Under the pieces are notes generated by a model, which had not been told where the DNA came from, made no database searches, and worked only from the letters and a program-made list of their open reading frames with translations. 64,000 nt of DNA, from contig JBHYGA010000006.1 in the NCBI GenBank assembly GCA_051859245.1, positions 160,001 through 224,000 of the forward strand, written 5' to 3'. The translations under genes and the position numbers were made by a program. Shown in pieces: positions 31,519 to 63,758 of the stretch (the first letter of the stretch is position 1; each line of letters starts with the position of its first letter). The DNA comes from Gemmatimonadaceae bacterium. GTDB taxonomy: Bacteria > Gemmatimonadota > Gemmatimonadetes > Gemmatimonadales > Gemmatimonadaceae.

Positions 31519-32448
31519 ATGCCTGTTCGCATTCCCCTGATCACTGACCCAGCCGCGCGCGTACTGCTCGATGGTCTGGTCGACTTTGCTGGCCTCTTTC
31601 CTCCCGCGTCACTTTCCATGCCCGACGCGGTCAAACAGTATGCGAAAGCCCGTGGCGGCGAAGCGGGTTGGATGCTCGGCCGCTTTGTGTGTCCCGTCGC
31701 GCAGCTCGAGTCATTCGGCGCTGTGGCCGAGCCGTTGTTGCCACGTGATGCGGGCGCGATTCCGTGGCGCCTCTCGGCGATTGGTTCCGGTGATCATGCG
31801 GCCGACGCCGCTGCGATTGCTGTGATCAACGAGTCGCATCGTTGGAGTTGGGATGAGTGCAGCGCGATCGTTGACACGATCGAGACGCGTGCGTCGTCCG
31901 TTGCGGAAATTGAGCAGATCGACCGTGCGTTTGGTGCGCAGGCCACGGTGTATGTGGAGCTTTCCCCAGACGCCGAACTGGCGCCGTTGCTTGCCGCGCT
32001 CGCGCGAACGGGTCGTCGTGCCAAATTGCGCACCGGTGGTGTGGTCCCCGATGCGTTTCCGACCGCGGATTCGATTGTGGCGTTCATTGACGCGTGCGTT
32101 GAAGCGGGCGTGCCGTTCAAGGCCACGGCGGGTTTGCATCACGCCATGTGCGGGCACTACGCGCTTACCTACGCGCCCGATAGTGCAACGGCGCCAATGT
32201 ATGGCTACCTGAATATTGCACTCGCTGTTGCGCTGCGATTGGCCAACGCATCGGGTGACGTGATGCTCAACGCGCTGCACGAATCGGATCGCTCCTCAAT
32301 CACGTTCTCCGACGAAAGTGTGAAGTGGCGATCGCACACGCTTGATCGCACGCGCATCGCGCATATGCGGGAGCATGTGTTTACATCTTTCGGTTCGTGT
32401 TCGTTTGCCGAGCCAGTGTCCGAAGGGCGCGCGATGGGTGCGTGGTAA
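31519..32448 (+). CDS. Conserved hypothetical protein translationally coupled to fahA
   Basis: LVDFAGLFPPA, KLRTGG, FKATAGLHH, FGSCSFAEP motifs; TAATG overlap. Confidence 0.75.
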   Translation: MPVRIPLITDPAARVLLDGLVDFAGLFPPASLSMPDAVKQYAKARGGEAGWMLGRFVCPVAQLESFGAVAEPLLPRDAGAIPWRLSAIGSGDHAADAAAIAVINESHRWSWDECSAIVDTIETRASSVAEIEQIDRAFGAQATVYVELSPDAELAPLLAALARTGRRAKLRTGGVVPDAFPTADSIVAFIDACVEAGVPFKATAGLHHAMCGHYALTYAPDSATAPMYGYLNIALAVALRLANASGDVMLNALHESDRSSITFSDESVKWRSHTLDRTRIAHMREHVFTSFGSCSFAEPVSEGRAMGAW

Positions 32449-33776: not shown

Positions 33777-33816
33777 TGCAGCAGGTCCTGTCTACATTCC
33801 TGAAGTGGAGAGAACA

Positions 33817-34521
33817 ATGCAGATGATGAAGCGTTCAATGTTGGCGCTCGCCGCGGCGGCGTTGCTGCCGACCGTGGTGATGGCGCAGGCAGACAGTGAA
33901 GAGTCGCGGAAAGTGGCTGGCGGTGGCATTTCAATTCCGGGCTGGACTGGTGTGATCGATGCCAAGGAAAAGGCGGCCGGTCAGGTGCTCAACAACGCCA
34001 AGCTGTCGATGGACGGCAAAGTGATGAAGGTGGTGACGGGTCCCGCGGTCACGTACTGGAATCCGGCCAACAAGGCCACGGGTGATTACACGGTCAAGGC
34101 CACGTTCAATGAACCGCAGTTCATGAATGTGAACAACCACGCGCATCCGTACGGCATTGTGATTGCCGGCAACGATCTTGGCACGGACGCAGGCAGCTAC
34201 CTCTACTGCGCGGCGTACGGCGACGGACGTTTCATTGTGCGCGGCATGGGCCCGGCACCGTTCCAGATGAACGGTCGCGGTGAAGCCAACGCGGCGATCA
34301 ACAAGGCCGCCGGCAAGATGTCGCCGGTGTCGCAGGAAATCGCCGTGTCAGTCAAGGGCAACAGCGTCACGTGCGCGATCAACGGCACGGTTGTGGGCAC
34401 GTATGACAAGGCCGCGCTCGTTGGCGCGGGCAAGCTCAAGTCAACGGACGGTGTGTACGGAATTCGCTTTGGTCACAATACCGACGCAACGGTGAGCGGC
34501 TTCACGATGACCAAGCCGTAA
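33817..34521 (+). CDS. Secreted hypothetical protein, beta-sandwich (DUF1080-like)
   Basis: GGAG RBS, signal peptide ...VMA-Q; GDYTVKATF, HPYGIVIAG, GVYGIR. Confidence 0.7.
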   Translation: MQMMKRSMLALAAAALLPTVVMAQADSEESRKVAGGGISIPGWTGVIDAKEKAAGQVLNNAKLSMDGKVMKVVTGPAVTYWNPANKATGDYTVKATFNEPQFMNVNNHAHPYGIVIAGNDLGTDAGSYLYCAAYGDGRFIVRGMGPAPFQMNGRGEANAAINKAAGKMSPVSQEIAVSVKGNSVTCAINGTVVGTYDKAALVGAGKLKSTDGVYGIRFGHNTDATVSGFTMTKP

Positions 34522-34543
34522 CACGCGGCAATCTGTTGCGGGC

Positions 34544-35371
34544 TCAGTGCGACGGGTTCGGTGTGTGAAAGGAACCGGTGAGGCGCGCGATGATGGCGCG
34601 CACACCGGTTTTTTTCTTGCGCGCTGGTTTCGGCGTCACGCCGAGCAATGCCATCTGATGTGCGCGCACCGTCGCCTCGGCCGCCGCCAAACGCGCCAGC
34701 GCCTTCTTCTGTTTGCGCAACTTCCAGCGTTTCGCGATCCACAGCACTGATGTGCCGGTCACAATGGAAACGCCCGCACCAATGAGGCCCAAAGTGAGTC
34801 CGAGTTCCTGCAGCTGCCCCTGACGCACGTGCTCAGGTACCGCGGCCATGAACGCGTAGCCGAAGCTCGCCCACAGGGCGACGAATTGGCCATTCATGGC
34901 CCAACTGCGACGAGTCTTGCGATGCAGCGCCAACAACCCCAACGCTGCACCAGACGCAAGCACTGCAGACACTTCGGAGAGATCACCGGGATCAAACGCC
35001 GCAGCACCACCCATTGCGCCGAGCGCTGTTCCGGTTGCCACCGACGCCGCGGTGAGCCAACGACGCCACGAGGAGATCTCCGCCTCGCTCGTCACCACGG
35101 GCGCCGAGGATTGCGCGACCGCGCTCGCGAGCGCCGAAAGCTCTTCAGCTTGTTTGACGAGCAGCTGCTCGCTCGCATGCGGCACGCGCTCCAACGCAAC
35201 GCGATCGAGTACAATGCGCTCCTTGAGCGCCTGCTCGAGTGCGATCGGCGAGATCTGCAGTTCCTGCGCCCGCTCCCGAAGCGCCGAGAACGCGCGCCCC
35301 TGCGTGTCGATCTCCGCGGCGCGCGCCAGGATCTGCTCGATTTCCTGCGGCGAGAGGGGCTGGTCGGTCAT
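34544..35371 (-). CDS. Membrane protein, paralog 4 of 4
   Basis: MTDQPLSPQEIEQILARAAEID...ELQISPIALEQAL; about 4 TM; ends SFHTPNPSH. Confidence 0.8.
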   Translation of the reverse strand: MTDQPLSPQEIEQILARAAEIDTQGRAFSALRERAQELQISPIALEQALKERIVLDRVALERVPHASEQLLVKQAEELSALASAVAQSSAPVVTSEAEISSWRRWLTAASVATGTALGAMGGAAAFDPGDLSEVSAVLASGAALGLLALHRKTRRSWAMNGQFVALWASFGYAFMAAVPEHVRQGQLQELGLTLGLIGAGVSIVTGTSVLWIAKRWKLRKQKKALARLAAAEATVRAHQMALLGVTPKPARKKKTGVRAIIARLTGSFHTPNPSH

Positions 35372-35375
35372 AGGG

Positions 35376-36089
35376 TCAGATCGGAGTGCTGAAGTGCGGC
35401 GGCAGCGGGGTGGAGAACGTCCGCGCCCCTTCGGAATGATAACCAGACGGCGGGCCGAGGTTGCTCCGGTCGGGTTGGCGAGCGGCCGTGTGTGATCGCG
35501 CGCGCGCACTCGCCGTCTCGCGCCACTTCACCAGGAGCCGTCTCGCCTGATGCACCAAGCCGCTGATCGTCGCACTCACACCACCGCCGATGAGCGCCAT
35601 TTCAAAGGCCCAGCCCTGAAACTCGCCGTGTCCCACGGCCCAGCCGTAGGCGTAACTCGCCCAGAGTACGGCGATGCGCCCGAACAGCGCCCAGGGTCGC
35701 GCATCGCGGCGATAGGGCCAGGTGAGCGTGATGCTCAGGGCGATCAGCAGGAACACCGTGAACTCGGTGAGACTGTCGCCCCCTGGCGGTCTGTAATCCA
35801 GGCCAGCGGCCATGCCGCTGAGCGCCCCCACGCCAACCGTTGCGGCCGCGAGCCAGCCGCGGAATCGTGACCGCATCGACGTCGGTGTCTTGATCGACGC
35901 AGCGATCACAGCCACTTCCTTTTCGCGCGCGATCTCCGCCAGTGCCTGATCCATTGCCGCTGGCGAAATGTTCAGCTGTGCGGCGATGTCGCGCAGTTGA
36001 GTAAGCTGCGCATCATTGCGTGTATCAAGTTCGCGCGCCCGCGCGATCACGCGTTGCAGCTCGTTCTCGTTGAGTGGTGTGGGCGACAT
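35376..36089 (-). CDS. Membrane protein, paralog 3 of 4
   Basis: MSPTPLNENELQRVIARARELD...QLNISPAAMDQAL; about 4 TM; ends TFSTPLPPHFSTPI. Confidence 0.8.
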   Translation of the reverse strand: MSPTPLNENELQRVIARARELDTRNDAQLTQLRDIAAQLNISPAAMDQALAEIAREKEVAVIAASIKTPTSMRSRFRGWLAAATVGVGALSGMAAGLDYRPPGGDSLTEFTVFLLIALSITLTWPYRRDARPWALFGRIAVLWASYAYGWAVGHGEFQGWAFEMALIGGGVSATISGLVHQARRLLVKWRETASARARSHTAARQPDRSNLGPPSGYHSEGARTFSTPLPPHFSTPI

Positions 36090-36118
36090 GGATCAGCGGG
36101 TGAGGGTGTTGACAACGG

Positions 36119-36760
36119 TCACGGTACTGGTGTCGCAAAACTCTGGCCGCTCGCACTTACGTTGCCCGAAGCATCGGAATGCTCTCGCAGCGGCAATCGC
36201 GCGATCACACCAGTCGCCATGGCAATTGTGAGGCCAACCGCCGCAAATCCGGCGATATCCTCGTGAAACGACTGCGTTGTGAACGAAAAACCCAAGCACC
36301 ACGTGAGCCAGAACGTGGCGAGTTGTCGCAGCATTGGCCCGATGTGTGTGCGCTCGCGATAGAGCAGCACAATCAACAGCGAAGCGAGCGTGAGTGCGCC
36401 AAGTGTGACACTTGCGAACTCGACACTGATCGGTTGCGTGATCGCACGGCTCGCATGATTTACGCCCGCGATTGCACCCGCGATCGTCCCCGCCGTCGCA
36501 ACGGCGGCAGTGGCCGTCGCAATCCACCGCCGTGCCAACCGCCGGGTACTGCCAGACACACTCTGCTGTGTTGGCACCGCTGCAGCTTTCACACGCTCGT
36601 ACTCTGCCAGCGCCTGCTCGACCGCGCGCGGCGAGATATCGAGCTCCGCCGCAATTTCACGCAGTCGTGCGCGCGACTGCGATTCACCACCTGCGTCAAT
36701 CTCTGCTGCGCGCGCCAGGACGCGTTGCAGCTCGTGCTCGTTGAACGGTGTGTCAGGCAT
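36119..36760 (-). CDS. Membrane protein, paralog 2 of 4
   Basis: MPDTPFNEHELQRVLARAAEID...ELDISPRAVEQAL; about 4 TM; ends SFATPVP; GAGG RBS. Confidence 0.8.
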   Translation of the reverse strand: MPDTPFNEHELQRVLARAAEIDAGGESQSRARLREIAAELDISPRAVEQALAEYERVKAAAVPTQQSVSGSTRRLARRWIATATAAVATAGTIAGAIAGVNHASRAITQPISVEFASVTLGALTLASLLIVLLYRERTHIGPMLRQLATFWLTWCLGFSFTTQSFHEDIAGFAAVGLTIAMATGVIARLPLREHSDASGNVSASGQSFATPVP

Positions 36761-36796
36761 CATCACCTCGTGGTCAGGAGCGTGAGCGCCGAACGA

Positions 36797-37468
36797 TCAG
36801 GGGTTCGGCGTGGCGTACGAGGAAGGCAGGGGGGTGATGTACGACGACCCTTTGCGCGTGATGTGGTAGCGCTGCAGGAGTGTTTGCAAGCCAACACCAA
36901 CCATGGCAGACACGCCGAATCCGCACGTGCCAACAAACAAAATGTCGTCCCAGAAGTGACCGTATGACGTCATGAAACCGTACATCCACGTACCCCAGAA
37001 CGAGGCGAGCTGCAGCATCATCTGCGCTGGCGAGCGACTTCGTCGATGCGACCACACAAGCAGCAACGAAATTCCGGCGAGCAAACTCAGCGTGGTGGCG
37101 ATCACCACATCATCGTAGCGGAAGTTCGCGCGCGACGACGCGCCCGTCACGGCGCCCAACGCTGCACCTGCAGCGACCACGCCAGCCGTGATCCAGGTTT
37201 TCCACCGCGCTGTGCGACGGGGTGGCGCATCTGCGATATGGTCGGCCGCCTGCACCGCGAACTGCGGATGCCCATCGCGCACGACCGGCACACCAACCCC
37301 TGCTACACGCTCCGCAATCGCTCGCTCAATCGCCACCGGCGAAAGATTTAGCTCCACTGCGATTTGTCGAAACCGCTCAATCGTTGGTGCAGATTCCTGC
37401 GCGTCAATTTCAATCGCGCGCGCAATCAGTCGTTCCAGTTCCTGCTCGCTCAGCGGTGCATCAGACAT
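36797..37468 (-). CDS. Membrane protein, paralog 1 of 4
   Basis: MSDAPLSEQELERLIARAIEID...ELNLSPVAIERAI; about 4 TM; ends SYITPLPSSYATPNP; GGAG RBS. Confidence 0.8.
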   Translation of the reverse strand: MSDAPLSEQELERLIARAIEIDAQESAPTIERFRQIAVELNLSPVAIERAIAERVAGVGVPVVRDGHPQFAVQAADHIADAPPRRTARWKTWITAGVVAAGAALGAVTGASSRANFRYDDVVIATTLSLLAGISLLLVWSHRRSRSPAQMMLQLASFWGTWMYGFMTSYGHFWDDILFVGTCGFGVSAMVGVGLQTLLQRYHITRKGSSYITPLPSSYATPNP

Positions 37469-37527
37469 GGGCTCTCCGGGGCTCTGTGGTCCACCCACAA
37501 ATAATACGGTTTCGTTTCATCGCTCGC

Positions 37528-38145
37528 TCATCGCTCGCTCATCGCGATCACGGTGTTCCACTCGGCTTCCGTGACCGGAACCACAGAGAGCCGCCCCACC
37601 CGAATCAGCGCCATCTCCGAGAGCGCCGGCTCAGCCTTGATTTCCGGCAGTGCGACGGCGCGCTTCAGTTTGCGCACCGCTTTCACATCAACCATGAACC
37701 ACGTTGGCATCTCGGGATCTGACTTGTCGTCGAAATACGCGTGCGTGGGATCCCACGCCGTGTGATCCGGATAGCCTTCGCGCACCACCTCGCAAATGCC
37801 CACAATCGCCGAGGGTTCAGCGTTCGAGTGGTAGTAAAAGACGAGGTCGCCACGCTTCATACCGTCACGCAGAAAATTGCGCGCGCCCGTGTTGCGCACA
37901 CTGTCCCAGCACGTCGTGCGTTTGGGCGCCGCTTCGAGATCGTCAAACGAAAACACATCAGGCTCGGATTTCACGAGCCAGTAGCGACGCTCGCCGTTCG
38001 CACGCGCATACACGTGCGCCCACTTACCCTGATCATACGGCATGGACTGCGGAGCCTTTTTCGCCGCAGACTTCTTCCCAGCCGACTTTTCTGATGCGCT
38101 GACTGCCGTTTTTGCCACTTTCTTCACCGCCTTCTTCACCGCCAT
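37528..38145 (-). CDS. EVE domain protein with Lys/Ala-rich N-terminal extension
   Basis: YWLVKSEP, WDSVRN..ARN, GDLVFYYHS, YFDDKS, RLSVVPV. Confidence 0.92.
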   Translation of the reverse strand: MAVKKAVKKVAKTAVSASEKSAGKKSAAKKAPQSMPYDQGKWAHVYARANGERRYWLVKSEPDVFSFDDLEAAPKRTTCWDSVRNTGARNFLRDGMKRGDLVFYYHSNAEPSAIVGICEVVREGYPDHTAWDPTHAYFDDKSDPEMPTWFMVDVKAVRKLKRAVALPEIKAEPALSEMALIRVGRLSVVPVTEAEWNTVIAMSER

Positions 38146-38385
38146 ATCCCAACGCTCCACACGTGTGCTAATTCCGAAGGGACCTGCGGCCGCATCGTCG
38201 GCCACCGGTCGAACGGCTGAACGTACCTACGGACAACGACCCCCGGAATCTTCAGGTGCCCGCACGCCGCGCTCACCGAATGCCGCTCCAAGCATGCTCC
38301 GCGCTAACCGCACGATGCAACGTCCGCACGCACCGGCCCGTAGCTGCACCGAACCTCACGCCCCGCACGCCCGCGCATTAACATC

Positions 38386-39261
38386 TTGGCCGTGGACATC
38401 ACGACAGAATCAGCCATTCCGGGGCGCGCGCTCGCGGCCATCGACTTTGGCATCAGCAACACCGACGCGGTCAGCCTCATCGACGGCACCGTGTATCGCT
38501 GGACGCGCCCCACCGACGGCGTGCCCAACGATGAGGTCGTGCATTCCGTGCTCGCCGAAGGCGGGTTGTCCCTCGCGGTATTGCCGCATCTCGCGGTGAC
38601 GGGCGGTCGCCACCGCATTTTGCCCGCGCGCATTGACAGCATTCCGCTGCGGGCTGTGAACGAAGTCACCGCCATTGGACGTGGCGGACAAACCCTCGGT
38701 GCTATCGACGAAAGCAATACGACCGCACCAATGCTTGTCGTGAGCGCCGGCTCCGGCACTGCCGTGGTCGCCGCGCGCGGACGCGAATACGCGCATGTGA
38801 CCGGAACCGGTGTGGGCGGTGGCACCCTGCAAGGGCTGGGACGACTACTGCTGGGGACGAATGACGCCAAGGCGATTGACGCACTCGCACAAACCGGCAA
38901 CGCCAACGGCGCCGATCTCAGCATTGGCGATGTCATCAGCGGCAAACTCGGTACACTCCCTCCCGATGCAACCGCGGTGAACTTTGGTCGACTCGCGCAC
39001 CTCGCGCCGGATGCGTCAACGCCCGATCTCGCGGCCGCGCTCATGACGCTCGTGGGACAAGTCATTGCCATCACCGCGATCAACGCTGCACGCGCCGAAC
39101 GACTCGATCGCATTGTGATGATCGGACACATGACCGACATGCCGAGCTTTCGGTCGGTGGTTGAGCGCGTGGGCGAGTACTACAGCACAGAAATCACGCT
39201 CCCGCTGCACGCCGGCTTCGGCACGGCGATCGGCGCGATGTTGCACGAGGCCAACGGCTAG
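38386..39261 (+). CDS. Type II (fumble/CoaW-like) pantothenate kinase family protein
   Basis: AVTGG, VNEVTAIGRG, VVSAGSGT, VTGTGVGGGTLQGL, DLSIGD, TAVNFG, AIGA. Confidence 0.8.
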   Translation: MAVDITTESAIPGRALAAIDFGISNTDAVSLIDGTVYRWTRPTDGVPNDEVVHSVLAEGGLSLAVLPHLAVTGGRHRILPARIDSIPLRAVNEVTAIGRGGQTLGAIDESNTTAPMLVVSAGSGTAVVAARGREYAHVTGTGVGGGTLQGLGRLLLGTNDAKAIDALAQTGNANGADLSIGDVISGKLGTLPPDATAVNFGRLAHLAPDASTPDLAAALMTLVGQVIAITAINAARAERLDRIVMIGHMTDMPSFRSVVERVGEYYSTEITLPLHAGFGTAIGAMLHEANG

Positions 39262-51784: not shown

Positions 51785-53323
51785 CTACGCGGACGTGCTC
51801 GCGAGCGCGTCCGTCAAGGCGTGCTCGAACAGGCGCGCACTCTCGTATCGCTCCGACGGTCGCTTGGCGAGACAGCGTTGGAGCACTGCGTCGAACGCCG
51901 CGGGCAGCTCCGGTCGCACCGCGCGCACTGACGGTGGCGCTTCGCTGAGATGGGCCAGCATCATCTGCAGCGGTGCACGCCCCTCGAACGGTGACCGTCC
52001 GGTGACCAGGAAGTAGCCGAGCGCGCCCAGGCTGTAGATATCGCTCGCTGGTCCCGGCGTTTGGTCCCCCGCGCACTGTTCGGGGGACATATAGGCGGGC
52101 GTGCCGAGTGCAATGCCGGCTTGGGTGATGCCGCCCGTGCCGTCGCCTACGACATCACCGTCCGCATTGTGCGCGGTTACGAGCCCAAAGTCGAGCAGCT
52201 TGGCCACGTCGGGTATGCCGCCTCGCTCGCCGAGCATGACGTTGCCGGGCTTGATGTCGCGGTGCGTGAGGCCTGCGCGGTGTGCTTCGTGCAGTGCGCC
52301 CGCGATCTGCCGAAGCACATGTATTGCTCGCGGTGCGTCCATGGGCCCGTCGCGCGACACGAGCTGCTCGAGCGTTATCCCGGGTAGATACTCCATGACG
52401 TAGTAGAACGTACCGTCATCAGTTATGCCGTAGTCGTAGATCGCAATGGTGTTCGGATGCGTGAGCGTGGCGGTGGTTTGCACTTCGCGCTCGAAGCGGC
52501 GTAGCACGTCAGAATTCCCGGCGTGCTCAGGCCTGATCAGCTTGATGGCACACGGTCGGCGCAGCAGTCGATGCTCGGCGCGGTACACTTCGCCCATTCC
52601 GCCCGAGCCGAGTGGCTCCACCAACACATACTGACCGAGCCGAAGCGCATCGCGCGCCACGGTGGTCGCCGCTTCAATGCGATATGCGCCGAACACCGCG
52701 TACGCGGTGAATCCAAGGAGAAGGCTCCACTGTGCTCCGAAGAACGTGGCAGCAACGGACATGGGAATCGAATACTGACTCAGAATCCAGGCATCAACGA
52801 GTGCGATTTCGCCAAGCATGAATGCAATCATCCACGCGGTGCGCTGCCATCGATTCGGAATCAGCAGACCGTACGCGACGATCATGAGTGACATCCACGC
52901 GGCCTGGCTTAATCCGAGATCCAGCGGCGCCTCGTCGAGGAGCGGGACGATGGAAGGAAAGGCGCCCCCTATGTACAACGCCACCCATGTGCTGAAGCCG
53001 GCAATGAGCACGACTTCCATCCGCCGGAGCCGACGCATGGAACGCGGGCGACCTTTGCGCAGCCACCACGCGACGAAGGCGCAGAGCAGCATCGGCACGC
53101 CGACAATGACTCTGCCTGTTTGCACGGGGGCACGATCGCCGATCGCGCCCAACAACTTCACGCTCAGAAGTACGAAAAACGTCAGCATGGTCGCGACGAT
53201 GACGATCGCGATCACGCGCAGTCGCCCCTGCAGCGTCGCAGCAAGGTCGTCGCTCGCGCCGGAGCCTTCGCCGGACGCGAAGCGAAAACGGGATGGCAAG
53301 GCTTCAGTGGCGTTGCGCGTCAT
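51785..53323 (-). CDS. Membrane-anchored Hanks-type Ser/Thr protein kinase (N-terminal multi-TM)
   Basis: LGSGGMGEVY, AIK, HRDIKPGN, DFG, GTPAYMSPEQ, DIYSLG. Confidence 0.95.
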   Translation of the reverse strand: MTRNATEALPSRFRFASGEGSGASDDLAATLQGRLRVIAIVIVATMLTFFVLLSVKLLGAIGDRAPVQTGRVIVGVPMLLCAFVAWWLRKGRPRSMRRLRRMEVVLIAGFSTWVALYIGGAFPSIVPLLDEAPLDLGLSQAAWMSLMIVAYGLLIPNRWQRTAWMIAFMLGEIALVDAWILSQYSIPMSVAATFFGAQWSLLLGFTAYAVFGAYRIEAATTVARDALRLGQYVLVEPLGSGGMGEVYRAEHRLLRRPCAIKLIRPEHAGNSDVLRRFEREVQTTATLTHPNTIAIYDYGITDDGTFYYVMEYLPGITLEQLVSRDGPMDAPRAIHVLRQIAGALHEAHRAGLTHRDIKPGNVMLGERGGIPDVAKLLDFGLVTAHNADGDVVGDGTGGITQAGIALGTPAYMSPEQCAGDQTPGPASDIYSLGALGYFLVTGRSPFEGRAPLQMMLAHLSEAPPSVRAVRPELPAAFDAVLQRCLAKRPSERYESARLFEHALTDALASTSA

Positions 53324-60221: not shown

Positions 60222-62873
60222 TCACCGCGGCGAACGCTGGCGCAGGTCGTTGAACCAGTTGAGCACCACCACGTTGGGCGTCGCCTCGAGGCGATCGATC
60301 GGGGTGACCAGCAGGAAGCGGGATCCGTCCGGCGTCACGTCGTAGCCTGCGGTGCGCCCCTGCGACGTGCGCCCGGCATCGGCGGCACGAAAGAGCAAAA
60401 CCGGTTCGCCCGCCTCACCGCTGGCTGGATCAAACGGCATCGCGTACACGGCGGATCCTTTGCGGTACACAAGCTCCCGTCCGCCCTTTGTGAAGCGCGG
60501 CTGGTCACCACCGTTGGCGGACACCTGGCGCCGCCCACCGCTGCCATTGAGCGCGCGCACGAACACATCGGAAGTGCCGGCCGGATTCATTTCGCCCCAC
60601 GCCAGCCAGCGGCCGTCGGGCGAGATATCGGCCGTGCGCTGCTCGGCGGCTCCCGCTTCGACGAGCCGTTCGGTGCCGAACACAAGGTCGCCGAGCATGA
60701 GCTGGCTGTTGCTGCCGATCCGCGTGAAGGCGACGGTGCGTCCATCCGGCGAGATCGCGAGCGGGACTTTGTCGTCGGGCGACGTGAGCGCAACTGAGGC
60801 CGCGGTCCCGTCGATCGGCTGTCGGTACAGGTCGTACTGCGGCACTTCGCGCGCGATGAGCAGCGACCGGCTGTCCGCCATCCACACTGGCGAGAACGAC
60901 ACGCCCTCCTCGCGGGTGAGCTGCGAAACCACTCGGCGGGTGTTGTCGTGCAACCAAACCTGGCGCTGCGGATCGAGACGCGTGATCGCCAGCCATCGTC
61001 CATCGGGTGAAAGGCGAGGCTCCGCCCATGCGCCCACGTCAGCAATGGCGGGTTTGGTGCTTCCGGCGCGGTCGGCCCACACCACGCGGCTCTCCGCGCG
61101 CCACTCCGAGGCGCGCACGTACACGAGCGTGCCGGTGCGTGAGACAGCGTAGCCCGCCGTGCCATTCGTGACGTTCATCGCGACGTCCTCCAGCGCCACC
61201 ACCTCCGGTCCGGTAACGCGTCGTGAGCCCACGTCGAACGGCACGGCGAACACCGTGTTGTCGCGCGCGTAGAGCAAGTGGCCGCTCGCAGCGTAGCGCG
61301 GAAAGATCGCCCCCTCCACAAGAACGGTGCGCTCGCCGCTCTCTATGTCGACGACCTCGATGCGTGAGCGTGCGAGTGGGGTGGCGTAACTGTTGAAGAG
61401 CACCGCGCGTCCGCCGGGCAGCGCCTGCGGATACCAGTGCCCGAACTCTCCGCGCGTCGTATCCAGCGTCGTCAGTCGGCGCACCGACCGACCTGCGCTA
61501 TCCAGGAGCTGCAGCCCCACCCGACTGCGAACAACAATCGTGCCGCCGTTGGGCAGCGCAGCAAAGCCCAGGGGGCTGGCAGTGTCGCTCACAACCGTGG
61601 GCGGACCGCCTGCTACCGGAACGCGCAGGAACTTCCCCCGCGCGCTGAAATAGAGCGAGCTTCCGTCGACGGAAAAGTCGATGTCACGCGCCCCTTCTGT
61701 GCCCGGCACCGCAAGGGTGGCCGCGCTGCCAAGCTCGCGAAGGATCACCCGATCGATGCCGTCGTCGTCACGCACGACCTGCGCAATGCGGCGCCCGTCA
61801 CCGGTGATCGCAACGTTCGGCCAGTCGGGCTGCGAGAGGATTGGACGATAGGCGAACTCGACGCGCTCGGTGATGCCCGTCTCGCGCGACGTGGCGGCAC
61901 GGATCGCCAGCGCTGTCGAAACAGCGGCCACGAGCAGACTCGCGATGGCGATGGCGCGCCAGGCGCCGGTCGCTGCCGTTCCACGCGCGCTCCGCCCGCC
62001 AGCGGCGGTGCGCGCACGTGAGGGTGCGACATCGTGTGCGGCCAGTGCCGTCGCGAACGCCGCGACGCTCGCGAATCGGTCGGCCGGCAGCTTCTCCAGT
62101 GCGCGCGCCACGGCATCGGCAACCGCCGGCGGCACCGTCTGACGCACCGACGAGACATCTGGCGCCGGCTCGGTGATGATCTTCATGATGATCTGCTGCG
62201 CGCTCGCCCCCGTGAACGGCGGCGCGCCGGTCAGCATCTCGTACAGCACGATTGCCAACGCGAACTGATCGCTGCGCGCGCTGATCTCCTTCTCCGCTGT
62301 GGCCTGCTCCGGGCTCATGTACTGCGGCGTACCGAGCGAAAGCCCTGTCTCGGTCATTCGCCCGGCGGCGGCGGCACTCACGGCGAGCGCGATGCCGAAG
62401 TCGGCCACCAGCGCGCGCCCGTCCTGCAGCAGGATGTTCTCCGGCTTGATGTCGCGGTGGATCACGCCCTGACTGTGCGCGAAGTGCAGCGCGTCGGCGA
62501 CCTCGATCGTGATGCGCACGGCCTCATCCACCCCGAGTTGCCGTTCGCGATCAAGGCGGCTGCGCAACGTCTCGCCGCTGATGAACGGCATCACGTAGTA
62601 CAGGAATCCGTCCGCGTCGCCGCTGTCGAACAGCGGCAGGATGTGCGGATGCTGCAGCGACGCGGTCGTGGTGATCTCCCGCAAAAAGCGCTCGGCGCCG
62701 AGTGCTGCGGCAAGCTCCGGCCGCAAGACTTTGACGGCCACCCGGCGCTTGTGCTTCAGGTCCTCGGCAAGAAAGACCGTGGCCATGCCACCCTCGCCGA
62801 TTTCCCGCTCAATGCGGTAGCGGTCAGCGAGGGCGGTGGCGAGCCGGTCCGTGCGGGCGATGGGTGCGTGCAC
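60222..62873 (-). CDS. Ser/Thr protein kinase with TM helix and TolB-like/PD40 propeller; start approximate
   Basis: IGEGGMATVF, VAVK, HRDIKPEN, DFG, GTPQYMSPEQ; repeated SPDGRW; VVLNWF end. Confidence 0.93.
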   Translation of the reverse strand: MHAPIARTDRLATALADRYRIEREIGEGGMATVFLAEDLKHKRRVAVKVLRPELAAALGAERFLREITTTASLQHPHILPLFDSGDADGFLYYVMPFISGETLRSRLDRERQLGVDEAVRITIEVADALHFAHSQGVIHRDIKPENILLQDGRALVADFGIALAVSAAAAGRMTETGLSLGTPQYMSPEQATAEKEISARSDQFALAIVLYEMLTGAPPFTGASAQQIIMKIITEPAPDVSSVRQTVPPAVADAVARALEKLPADRFASVAAFATALAAHDVAPSRARTAAGGRSARGTAATGAWRAIAIASLLVAAVSTALAIRAATSRETGITERVEFAYRPILSQPDWPNVAITGDGRRIAQVVRDDDGIDRVILRELGSAATLAVPGTEGARDIDFSVDGSSLYFSARGKFLRVPVAGGPPTVVSDTASPLGFAALPNGGTIVVRSRVGLQLLDSAGRSVRRLTTLDTTRGEFGHWYPQALPGGRAVLFNSYATPLARSRIEVVDIESGERTVLVEGAIFPRYAASGHLLYARDNTVFAVPFDVGSRRVTGPEVVALEDVAMNVTNGTAGYAVSRTGTLVYVRASEWRAESRVVWADRAGSTKPAIADVGAWAEPRLSPDGRWLAITRLDPQRQVWLHDNTRRVVSQLTREEGVSFSPVWMADSRSLLIAREVPQYDLYRQPIDGTAASVALTSPDDKVPLAISPDGRTVAFTRIGSNSQLMLGDLVFGTERLVEAGAAEQRTADISPDGRWLAWGEMNPAGTSDVFVRALNGSGGRRQVSANGGDQPRFTKGGRELVYRKGSAVYAMPFDPASGEAGEPVLLFRAADAGRTSQGRTAGYDVTPDGSRFLLVTPIDRLEATPNVVVLNWFNDLRQRSPR

Positions 62874-63017
62874 TCGAAGCGGGCGAGGGTAGCGAGAGAC
62901 GACTCGCCCGAAAATGCGCGGAGTCGTCGCAAACCGCCACGGATTGCGAAATGCGGTGTCGGGATGTTGCATATCGCGAAGGCAGGAGCGAGGACGTCCC
63001 CCTTTCCGGAGTCGATC

Positions 63018-63758
63018 ATGTCTACCACAAGACGGCAATTCCTCGATTCACTGGCGAGCGGTGCCGCTTCGATTGGCGTCACCACGTTAGGCGCCACCAC
63101 GCTCAGCGTAACCGCGCTGGGCGCCACCGCCGCCTTTCCGACTACCCTCCGCGCAATGCCGGCCGAGTTCACGGACCCCAGTGTGTCCGGGGCCGAGCAG
63201 CCGTCGTGGGAGACGCGCTGGACGGAGCGCTTGACTGGCCGGGTGCGCGCTGTGTTTGACGTCCCCGAAATCGAAAGCGGTTATGGCGTTTGGCGCGCGA
63301 GCGTGTGGGCTCGCCAGTACCAGGATGTGTTCGGAGTGCCCGCCAATGATCTCTCGACGGCGCTCGTCATCCGCCATAACGCGATCATCCTCGCGATGCA
63401 GCAGTCGTTCTGGGACACCTATGGCATTGGCAAGCGGCATAGCGTGACGCATCCAGCGACCCTGGAGCCGACGGACCGCAACCCGGCGCTGATGGGGTCA
63501 GGCGACGGGATCGAAGGGCTCCAGGTGGACTTTGCACTCGGCCCGTTCATGCAGCGCGGTGGCGTCGTGCTCGCCTGCAATGCCGCGCTGCAGGACCTCG
63601 TCCCTATGGTGCAGCAAGTGGACGGTGTGTCCGCAGACGAAGCCGGAGCGCGCGTGCGGCGGGGGCTCGTGCCGGGTGTAATTCTGCAGCCCTCGGGGGT
63701 CTTCGCGGTGATGCACGCGCAGCAGCAGGCAAAGGCGCTGTATATCCGCGCGAGCTGA
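63018..63758 (+). CDS. Tat-exported hypothetical protein, DsrE-like fold suspected
   Basis: GGAG RBS; TRRQFL Tat motif; RAVFD, VLACNAAL, PSGV..V..AQ. Confidence 0.7.
   Translation: MSTTRRQFLDSLASGAASIGVTTLGATTLSVTALGATAAFPTTLRAMPAEFTDPSVSGAEQPSWETRWTERLTGRVRAVFDVPEIESGYGVWRASVWARQYQDVFGVPANDLSTALVIRHNAIILAMQQSFWDTYGIGKRHSVTHPATLEPTDRNPALMGSGDGIEGLQVDFALGPFMQRGGVVLACNAALQDLVPMVQQVDGVSADEAGARVRRGLVPGVILQPSGVFAVMHAQQQAKALYIRAS

Follow-up and report, generated by a model that had tools for sequence, protein, structure and literature searches.

Four tandem genes at the locus

The 64,000-nucleotide stretch studied here (hereafter the window; positions 160,001 to 224,000 of contig JBHYGA010000006.1, from a Gemmatimonadaceae bacterium whose genome is called G000 below) carries on its minus strand a head-to-tail array of four paralogous genes, A to D, encoding membrane proteins. 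Their C-terminal tails bear one or two copies each of a short aromatic-x-Thr-Pro motif, the subject of this report. The four genes are:

36797-37468, minus strand: paralog A (P0001), 223 aa, with an N-terminal helical domain, four transmembrane (TM) helices and the tail SSYITPLPSSYATPNP, TGA stop
36119-36766, minus strand: paralog B, 215 aa counted from GTG, tail QSFATPVP, TGA stop
35376-36089, minus strand: paralog C (P0003), 237 aa; its linker is long and variable, its tail TFSTPLPPHFSTPI
34544-35371, minus strand: paralog D (P0004), 275 aa (start codon ATG at 35371); its linker is basic and helical, its tail LTGSFHTPNPSH

An earlier note on this DNA had counted six copies of aromatic-x-Thr-Pro in the four paralogs. 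All six are present, on the minus strand inside 34544-36850:

36824-36841, minus strand: A, copy 1, YITPLP, residues 210-215 (coordinates computed from the gene start)
36800-36817, minus strand: A, copy 2, YATPNP, residues 218-223, immediately before the stop
36122-36139, minus strand: B, FATPVP, residues 210-215
35400-35417, minus strand: C, copy 1, FSTPLP, residues 225-230
35379-35393, minus strand: C, copy 2, FSTPI, residues 233-237, at the C-terminus
34553-34570, minus strand: D, FHTPNP, residues 268-273, followed by SH and the stop

Paralogs B, C and D are 35-37% identical to A. An alignment of the four matches the tails at the motif alone, in agreement with the previous description of these tails as otherwise unalignable. 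For B, an ATG two codons downstream of the GTG is a possible alternative start; D ends in ...GSFHTPNPSH. The stop codon is TGA in all four genes and directly follows a Pro codon in A and B.

The intergenic gaps measure 30, 29 and 4 nt. The first of these, between A and B (36767-36796, minus strand), is in frame with both genes and holds no further stop; readthrough of the Pro-TGA of A would yield an A-B fusion, which may be a coincidence. The 29-nt gap between B and C is out of frame.

Architecture of the proteins and position of the tail

AlphaFold 2 (AF2) models were built from an alignment of 14 rows (predicted local distance difference test, pLDDT, 71) and from one of 150 rows (mean pLDDT 85, predicted template modelling score 0.60). 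In the 150-row model, the N-terminal domain (N-domain) of P0003 consists of helices 8-38 and 43-66, and is followed by TM helices at 72-97, 106-121, 132-154 and 159-203, with a pLDDT mostly of 85-97. The tail (residues 204-237) is a coil without secondary structure, with a pLDDT of 52-66. The two models disagree on the N-domain: three helices with 14 rows versus a two-helix hairpin with 150 rows. The tails of A and B are short, reaching only about 15-25 residues past TM4.

Lys and Arg residues peak before TM1, in the TM2-TM3 loop (e.g., HRRSRS) and after TM4; the two other loops, TM1-TM2 and TM3-TM4, have a neutral or acidic composition. Because of this distribution, the positive-inside rule places the N-domain and the tail on the same side of the membrane, probably in the cytoplasm. 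This bears out the earlier argument that an even number of TM helices puts the tail on the side of the N-domain, given the four helices of the model and the Lys and Arg counts. A complex prediction between the body of P0003 (residues 1-196) and its own tail (203-237), run without controls, gave a score of 0.00 and is uninformative either way.

Conservation and origin of the motif

The consensus of the tails is [ST]-[FY]-x-T-P-[LVNI]-(P), the TPx(P) core ending 0-2 residues from the C-terminus. It is carried by all 16 full-length members of one clade of the protein family and by the fragment P0139, which together stem from at least four genomes and from further metagenome sources. The last 20 residues contain [FY]xTP in 16/16 clade proteins, versus 0/142 other family representatives. 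Even among the 32 non-clade representatives with at least three Pro in the last 20 residues, none has it, and shuffled clade tails regained the motif in 0.5-12% of trials. Thr is never replaced by Ser in the 16 terminal motifs. The last residue of the protein varies (P, I, V, H or R), and the aromatic residue and the Thr, 3-5 residues upstream, are conserved. Where the motif is doubled (A, C, P0015, P0018 and P0139), the Thr-to-Thr spacing is exactly 8 residues.

This retention spans a considerable divergence. Types A to D differ at roughly 65-70% of their residues, and the alignment of the 16 proteins (about 30-35% identity between types) has only 15 invariant columns, two of which are the terminal T and P. 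The more distant members, with 50% identity or less, all keep the motif: P0014 (...SFHTPNPSP), P0016 (...SFHTPNPSR) and the B-type relative P0017 (...SAFATPVP) have a single copy, and P0015 (...PVTPLPDSFSTPI), P0018 (...MFTPVPRTFNTPV) and the fragment P0139 (...VLTPVPGPYHTPV) a doubled one. The six copies in the paralogs are not independent events; the evidence lies in their retention across deep divergence.

Within the types, the tails are closely maintained. The orthologues of A (P0009 and P0010; 75% and 72% identity) leave 14 of 16 tail residues invariant, with copy 1 reading YVTPLP and YITPVP. In the C group (orthologues P0008 and P0011), invariance extends to 13/13 positions at the very end of the protein, versus 5/42 positions at 183-224. 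The D orthologues P0005-P0007 have the same MTDQPL start and an identical tail. The metagenome proteins P0006, P0007, P0009 and P0011 agree with the tails of G000, and three of them (P0007, P0009 and P0011) are found on a single Joint Genome Institute contig.

At the codon level, a comparison of G000 with locus L035, from a metagenome-assembled genome with the same proteins as G217, covers 38 motif codons of A, C and D and counts 16 synonymous changes and one replacement, which turns L into V at one of the x positions. All five replacements in the last 22 codons of C fall in the 8 codons preceding the motif, together with two synonymous changes there. Because synonymous changes outnumber replacements 16 to 1 in the motif codons, the motif is under purifying selection at the protein level, acting on the peptide and not on the DNA. 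Some C-type orthologues have an extra, degenerate copy upstream in the linker, SYVTP in P0008 (L035 6724-7434) and RYASP in P0011, which C of G000 does not have. This suggests that copies of the motif arise and degenerate inside the tail.

In a maximum-likelihood tree of 75 rows (ids up to P0075 and at least 170 aa, with later ids and fragments omitted), the 16 motif proteins lie on one side of one branch (Shimodaira-Hasegawa-like approximate likelihood ratio test support of 93), and one change is needed to explain them. This shows a single origin of the motif, at the base of one clade, followed by its retention when types A, B, C and D split. Two outcomes had been named by the earlier note as fatal to the motif, its absence from orthologues and a frequency no higher than the background of Pro-rich tails. 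Neither was seen: every orthologue and clade member found keeps the motif, and the Pro-rich tails outside the clade are without it.

Use of the motif elsewhere in the proteome

A scan of the 6392 stop-to-stop open reading frames of at least 200 aa in G000 returned 24 occurrences of [FY]xTPxP, versus 15-22 in shuffled sequences; hence, the motif as such is not enriched. Its position is another matter: within 40 residues of the C-terminus there are five cases, all in genes A-D. The proteome-wide scan for a terminal motif that had been proposed earlier thus restricts it to the array, and the motif is private to this family within G000. Such a private motif argues for a dedicated reader or for a role inside the family's own assembly, and not for a general hub.

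A looser scan, for [FYW]xTP in the last 12 residues, gave 67 of 30246 reading frames, mostly short and spurious-looking. One hit, which from its sequence looks like a sigma factor of the extracytoplasmic function type ending in ...ERNYATP (L062 2011-2655, on contig C4 of G000), was judged incidental; the start of the next gene overlaps its 3' end. The product of this overlapping gene resembles an anti-sigma factor.

Distribution of the clade

Strong matches to the clade profile (E <= 1e-68) were found in G000 (four copies), G217 (three), G383 (two, one of the C type and one of the D type) and G154 (one), i.e., in 4 of the 15 sampled genomes of one Gemmatimonadaceae genus. Weaker matches in G294 and G001 are without the motif. 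A sample of 76 other genera of Gemmatimonadaceae (386 genomes) yielded no member of the clade. In G217, A, C and D occur in conserved synteny at locus L035, with identical or near-identical tails. Paralog B is missing from G217, G383 and G154, and the single gene of G154 keeps the doubled motif.

In G112, G053, G187 and G154, no family member lies in the 5 kb beside the orthologue of the secreted-protein gene that adjoins the array in G000, which marks the array as accessory and places it at a synteny break. In G000, its neighbours encode an EVE-domain protein, a secreted protein, FAH, a Fumble-like kinase and an M28 peptidase. The EVE-domain gene lies upstream of the array in both G000 and G217; G383 shares only the NadA/NadC/FAH/secreted-protein side, and the copy of G154 is located elsewhere, among different neighbours. 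Gene D is the last of the array in G000, G217 and G383, and in G000 and L035 the gene that follows is convergent. No neighbour hints at a function.

Family and fold searches

None of the four proteins matches a Pfam-A or NCBIfam family at the cut-off. The best matches below it are HTH_10 and HTH_23 in Pfam, both at 15.5 bits (cut-offs of 23.1 and 24.6) around residues 30-57, and the anti-sigma model NF052375 in NCBIfam, at 17.2 bits (cut-off 100). Foldseek retrieved nothing from the PDB at E <= 0.001. The wide VIA-align search gave a best Z of 9.1, for generic helical bundles (e.g., ABC-transporter TM domains and designed proteins) and over residues 70-193 only, which falls short of the level that is meaningful for helical folds. 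A sequence-profile search of the PDB had a best E of 0.027 and returned no usable match; weak helix-turn-helix (HTH) segments of ZitR/MarR type appeared at E 0.07-0.08.

A profile search of 1.84 billion representatives retrieved 1288 family relatives at E <= 1e-3 (counted as representatives at the 50% identity level), 310 at <= 1e-10 and 9 at <= 1e-30. Most are 180-260 aa long and match the N-domain as well as the four TM helices. A search of the ESM Atlas returned two clusters only, both named 'hypothetical protein' (scores of 0.90 and 0.89), with Gemmatimonadota as the commonest phylum. The four-TM family is undescribed and has so far been traced to Gemmatimonadota only.

The N-domain on its own has a wider distribution, with matches in 84 of 151 sampled genomes of Gemmatimonadaceae (a tally that takes in the unpublished genomes G033 and G007). 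Its consensus of about 60 aa, ...ILARAxELD...IAxExGISPxAvxxAL.E, also heads a separate family of about 270-300 aa, many members of which end in ...LEQILDRLEHGEF...; this family has no Pfam match, and none of its members has the motif. It occurs in many Gemmatimonadaceae genomes and in soil metagenomes (loci L036-L061 and L011-L034; e.g., L042 1011-1856). A metagenome scan returned only relatives that have the N-domain alone in common. G000 itself encodes a fifth, distant four-TM paralog of 233 aa (contig C1 417179-417703; L005 1348-2049, minus strand), which is without the tail motif and has no Pfam or NCBIfam family at the cut-off.

PADLOC gave no match for the four proteins or their two neighbours, and Rfam none in 34200-38400, so that a defence system or an RNA element is not supported. 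Scanning 34300-38500 for promoters and terminators gave no signal beyond that expected from shuffled sequence.

Kinases and FHA domains

The two Hanks-type kinases that the earlier note had seen in the window are present:

51785-53323, minus strand: Hanks-type kinase gene
60222-63038, minus strand: Hanks-type kinase gene

Both lie more than 15 kb from the array. Two kinases in 64 kb are unremarkable, because the 4.7-Mb genome has 41 Pkinase matches, 39 of them above the cut-off. FHA domains number two only in G000, on contigs C1 and C4 and hence off the contig of the array. One of the two is located directly upstream of a kinase domain (C4:425716-426801). No kinase or FHA gene was found as a conserved neighbour of the array, and none is adjacent in G383 or G154; the nearest kinase gene, about 3.6 kb from the single copy, is seen in G154 only. 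A link to Thr phosphorylation and eukaryote-like signalling, suggested earlier on the strength of these kinases, thus finds no support, neither in linkage to kinase or FHA genes nor in the kinase count. The publications listed for proline-directed bacterial Hanks kinases and for bacterial short linear motifs in Gemmatimonadetes include none on the motif.

Interpretation of the motif

Judged from conservation, the tails carry a real, lineage-specific short linear motif (SLiM), which behaves as a functional one. It is a new orphan SLiM, in an undescribed Gemmatimonadota family. The segment is predicted to be disordered, it is conserved relative to its flanks and it is kept across orthologues, as is characteristic of SLiMs. 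The earlier proposal of a docking motif is borne out as far as this behaviour goes, i.e., a disordered and conserved tail behind a diverging linker. Docking itself, as a near-terminal motif for a putative cytoplasmic partner, is the best available reading, tentatively adopted and just short of an even chance. In this scheme, the motif would serve as a proline-rich ligand peptide by which a cytoplasmic protein is docked to the membrane, a reading favoured because the segment is cytoplasmic (as predicted), disordered and Pro-rich, has a fixed aromatic residue and Thr, and is near-terminal, with a repeat of fixed spacing. The number of binding sites would grow with tandem gene duplication, from two motifs in the one-copy genome to six in G000. 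The reader would then serve this family alone and not act as a general hub, because no other G000 protein has the motif near its C-terminus.

Several points weigh against docking. No partner was found for the tail, and conservation of the neighbouring genes goes no further than local synteny. Outside the tail, the residues conserved specifically in the clade (T81, V85, Y148 and G168) are all in TM helices, and no clade-specific conserved cluster was found on the N-domain, an absence that is neutral regarding an external partner. The tree comes from a quick search, and the tail columns were part of its alignment. Finally, the sample is that of one genus, so that short divergence accounts for part of the conservation within types; it is the retention between types that mainly carries the argument.

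Phosphorylation, which is compatible with docking, is unlikely as the explanation of the motif. The conserved Thr would be the acceptor for a Hanks-type kinase, and would be read by an FHA or another phospho-binding module or switch an activity. The strict preference for Thr over Ser in 16/16 motifs agrees with this, as do the predicted cytoplasmic and disordered tail, the 41 Pkinase matches and two FHA domains of G000 and the kinase gene near the G154 copy. However, neither kinase nor FHA gene is a conserved neighbour, and the kinases of the window are distant. Pro at +1 is known to suit proline-directed kinases only, and hub kinases generally have many substrates, yet this motif is private to one family. 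Furthermore, in the available part of a bacterial Hanks-kinase phosphoproteome, GxT is the sole phosphothreonine motif, and kinase-dependent sites have no signature (PMC9674922). An outside chance is given to a stronger form, a proline-directed phospho-Thr switch, in which a dedicated Hanks-type kinase or a reader binding polyproline II helices would recognise the terminal S-[FY]-x-T-P-x-P, with the duplication of gene and motif building a multivalent membrane platform. If true, a module for SLiM signalling of a eukaryote-like kind would have evolved within a single genus of Gemmatimonadaceae.

The tail could also act within the family's own assembly, by binding an adjacent subunit, whether identical or encoded by another paralog, at its N-domain or its cytoplasmic face and thereby ordering or gating an oligomer. 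We regard this as rather unlikely, even if the private motif, the tandem multiplication (two to four copies in three of the four genomes) and the reuse of the N-domain as a conserved helical module in other Gemmatimonadaceae proteins are in line with it. The single gene of G154, which retains the doubled motif, shows that a relay between hetero-oligomer subunits cannot be required; the clade-specific residues are in the TM helices and not on the N-domain, and the tails of A and B have a short reach. The binding of one subunit's tail to the next, as once suggested, is hence not obligate and survives in a weakened, homo-oligomeric form. Similarly improbable is an effect of the motif on its own synthesis or turnover, through slow termination at the Pro-rich end or through protection from, or targeting to, C-terminal proteolysis. 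According to PMC7246954 (citing Hayes et al. 2002), Pro at the C-terminus can make termination stall and trigger SsrA tagging in E. coli, and XP-stop pairs are depleted in bacteria; this would suit the Pro-TGA ends of A and B, the use of TGA by all four genes and the constant placement of the motif 0-2 residues from the end. On the contrary, it is the last residue that varies and the upstream aromatic residue and Thr that are fixed, the doubled copies are too distant from the stop, and regulation of a downstream cistron is not general, with D-type genes standing last in the array before a convergent gene. The remaining possibility, a functionless remnant frozen since the common ancestor of the paralogs, is disfavoured and very improbable. 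All carriers do belong to one clade in one genus, for which a single origin suffices. Nevertheless, T-P stayed invariant in otherwise unalignable tails of types that are about 65-70% different, and the single replacement in the motif codons is conservative, against 16 synonymous changes, when the adjacent codons do show replacements.

To our knowledge, few bacterial SLiMs are documented beyond classic tails such as those of SSB, FtsZ and ssrA. The present motif is a clean and recently arisen case, with a single origin and three or four tandem duplications during which it was retained, and can serve as a natural experiment, on a small scale, in the growth of motif valency by gene duplication. 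It also provides a tractable handle on the function of the family, as the tail peptide could be used to fish out a partner. Its reach is limited to 4 of 15 sampled genomes, in one genus.

Comparison with known systems

The closest parallel in eukaryotes is found in proline-rich and proline-directed SLiMs, i.e., [ST]P kinase sites, class IV WW ligands and SH3 PxxP ligands. Like these, the motif is short and in a disordered segment predicted to be cytoplasmic; it has an invariant Thr-Pro with an aromatic residue at its flank and another Pro, and its tandem copies would allow multivalent binding. Here, however, the Pro residues are spaced as P-x-P instead of PxxP, the motif occurs strictly close to the C-terminus, and it is bacterial and restricted to one protein family. 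No WW, SH3 or CMGC-type reader turned up, none having been specifically searched.

With respect to overall architecture, the proteins resemble the BcrR-type membrane-bound one-component regulators, which combine an N-terminal HTH with four TM helices in about 200 aa. The size is similar, a small helical N-terminal domain, probably cytoplasmic, precedes four TM helices in both, and the weak HTH-like matches at residues ~30-57 would fit. On the other hand, these HTH scores are below the cut-off, the putative recognition helix is rich in Ala and acidic residues, and the 150-row model shows a two-helix hairpin. We know of no such tail motif in BcrR.

Two other kinds of C-terminal signal were considered. 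Pro-stop SsrA tagging and the SecM and MifM arrest peptides share with the array a conserved, Pro-containing end of the reading frame and, in some genes, a close next cistron. In contrast to them, the conserved residues extend here to 5-14 residues from the stop, the last residue varies, and the motif is kept in genes without a downstream cistron. An arrest peptide like SecM or MifM was rejected, as a same-strand downstream cistron is lacking where D is last in the array (G000, L035 and G383). The LPXTG, PEP-CTERM and GlyGly-CTERM sorting signals likewise place a short Pro/Thr signature near the C-terminus of a membrane-associated protein; theirs precedes a TM helix and a basic cluster, whereas here the order is TM4, basic cluster, motif and end, in a tail predicted to be cytoplasmic. 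A sortase or exosortase signal was rejected as well, with the motif standing 0-2 residues from the stop and after both TM4 and the basic cluster.

Other genes near the array

Positions 31519-32448 of the window (plus strand) encode a conserved 309-aa protein without a Pfam family, located between NadC and FAH. Directly upstream of A and on the same strand (37528-38205, minus) lies the gene of the EVE-domain protein (PF01878, E 2.3e-55), which has a Lys/Ala-rich N-terminal extension of about 70 aa; its position is conserved in G217 and not in G383. On the other side, convergent with D, 33808-34521 (plus strand) encodes a protein of about 237 aa that has no Pfam family, starts with a signal-peptide-like N-terminus and shows 72-77% identity across the genus.

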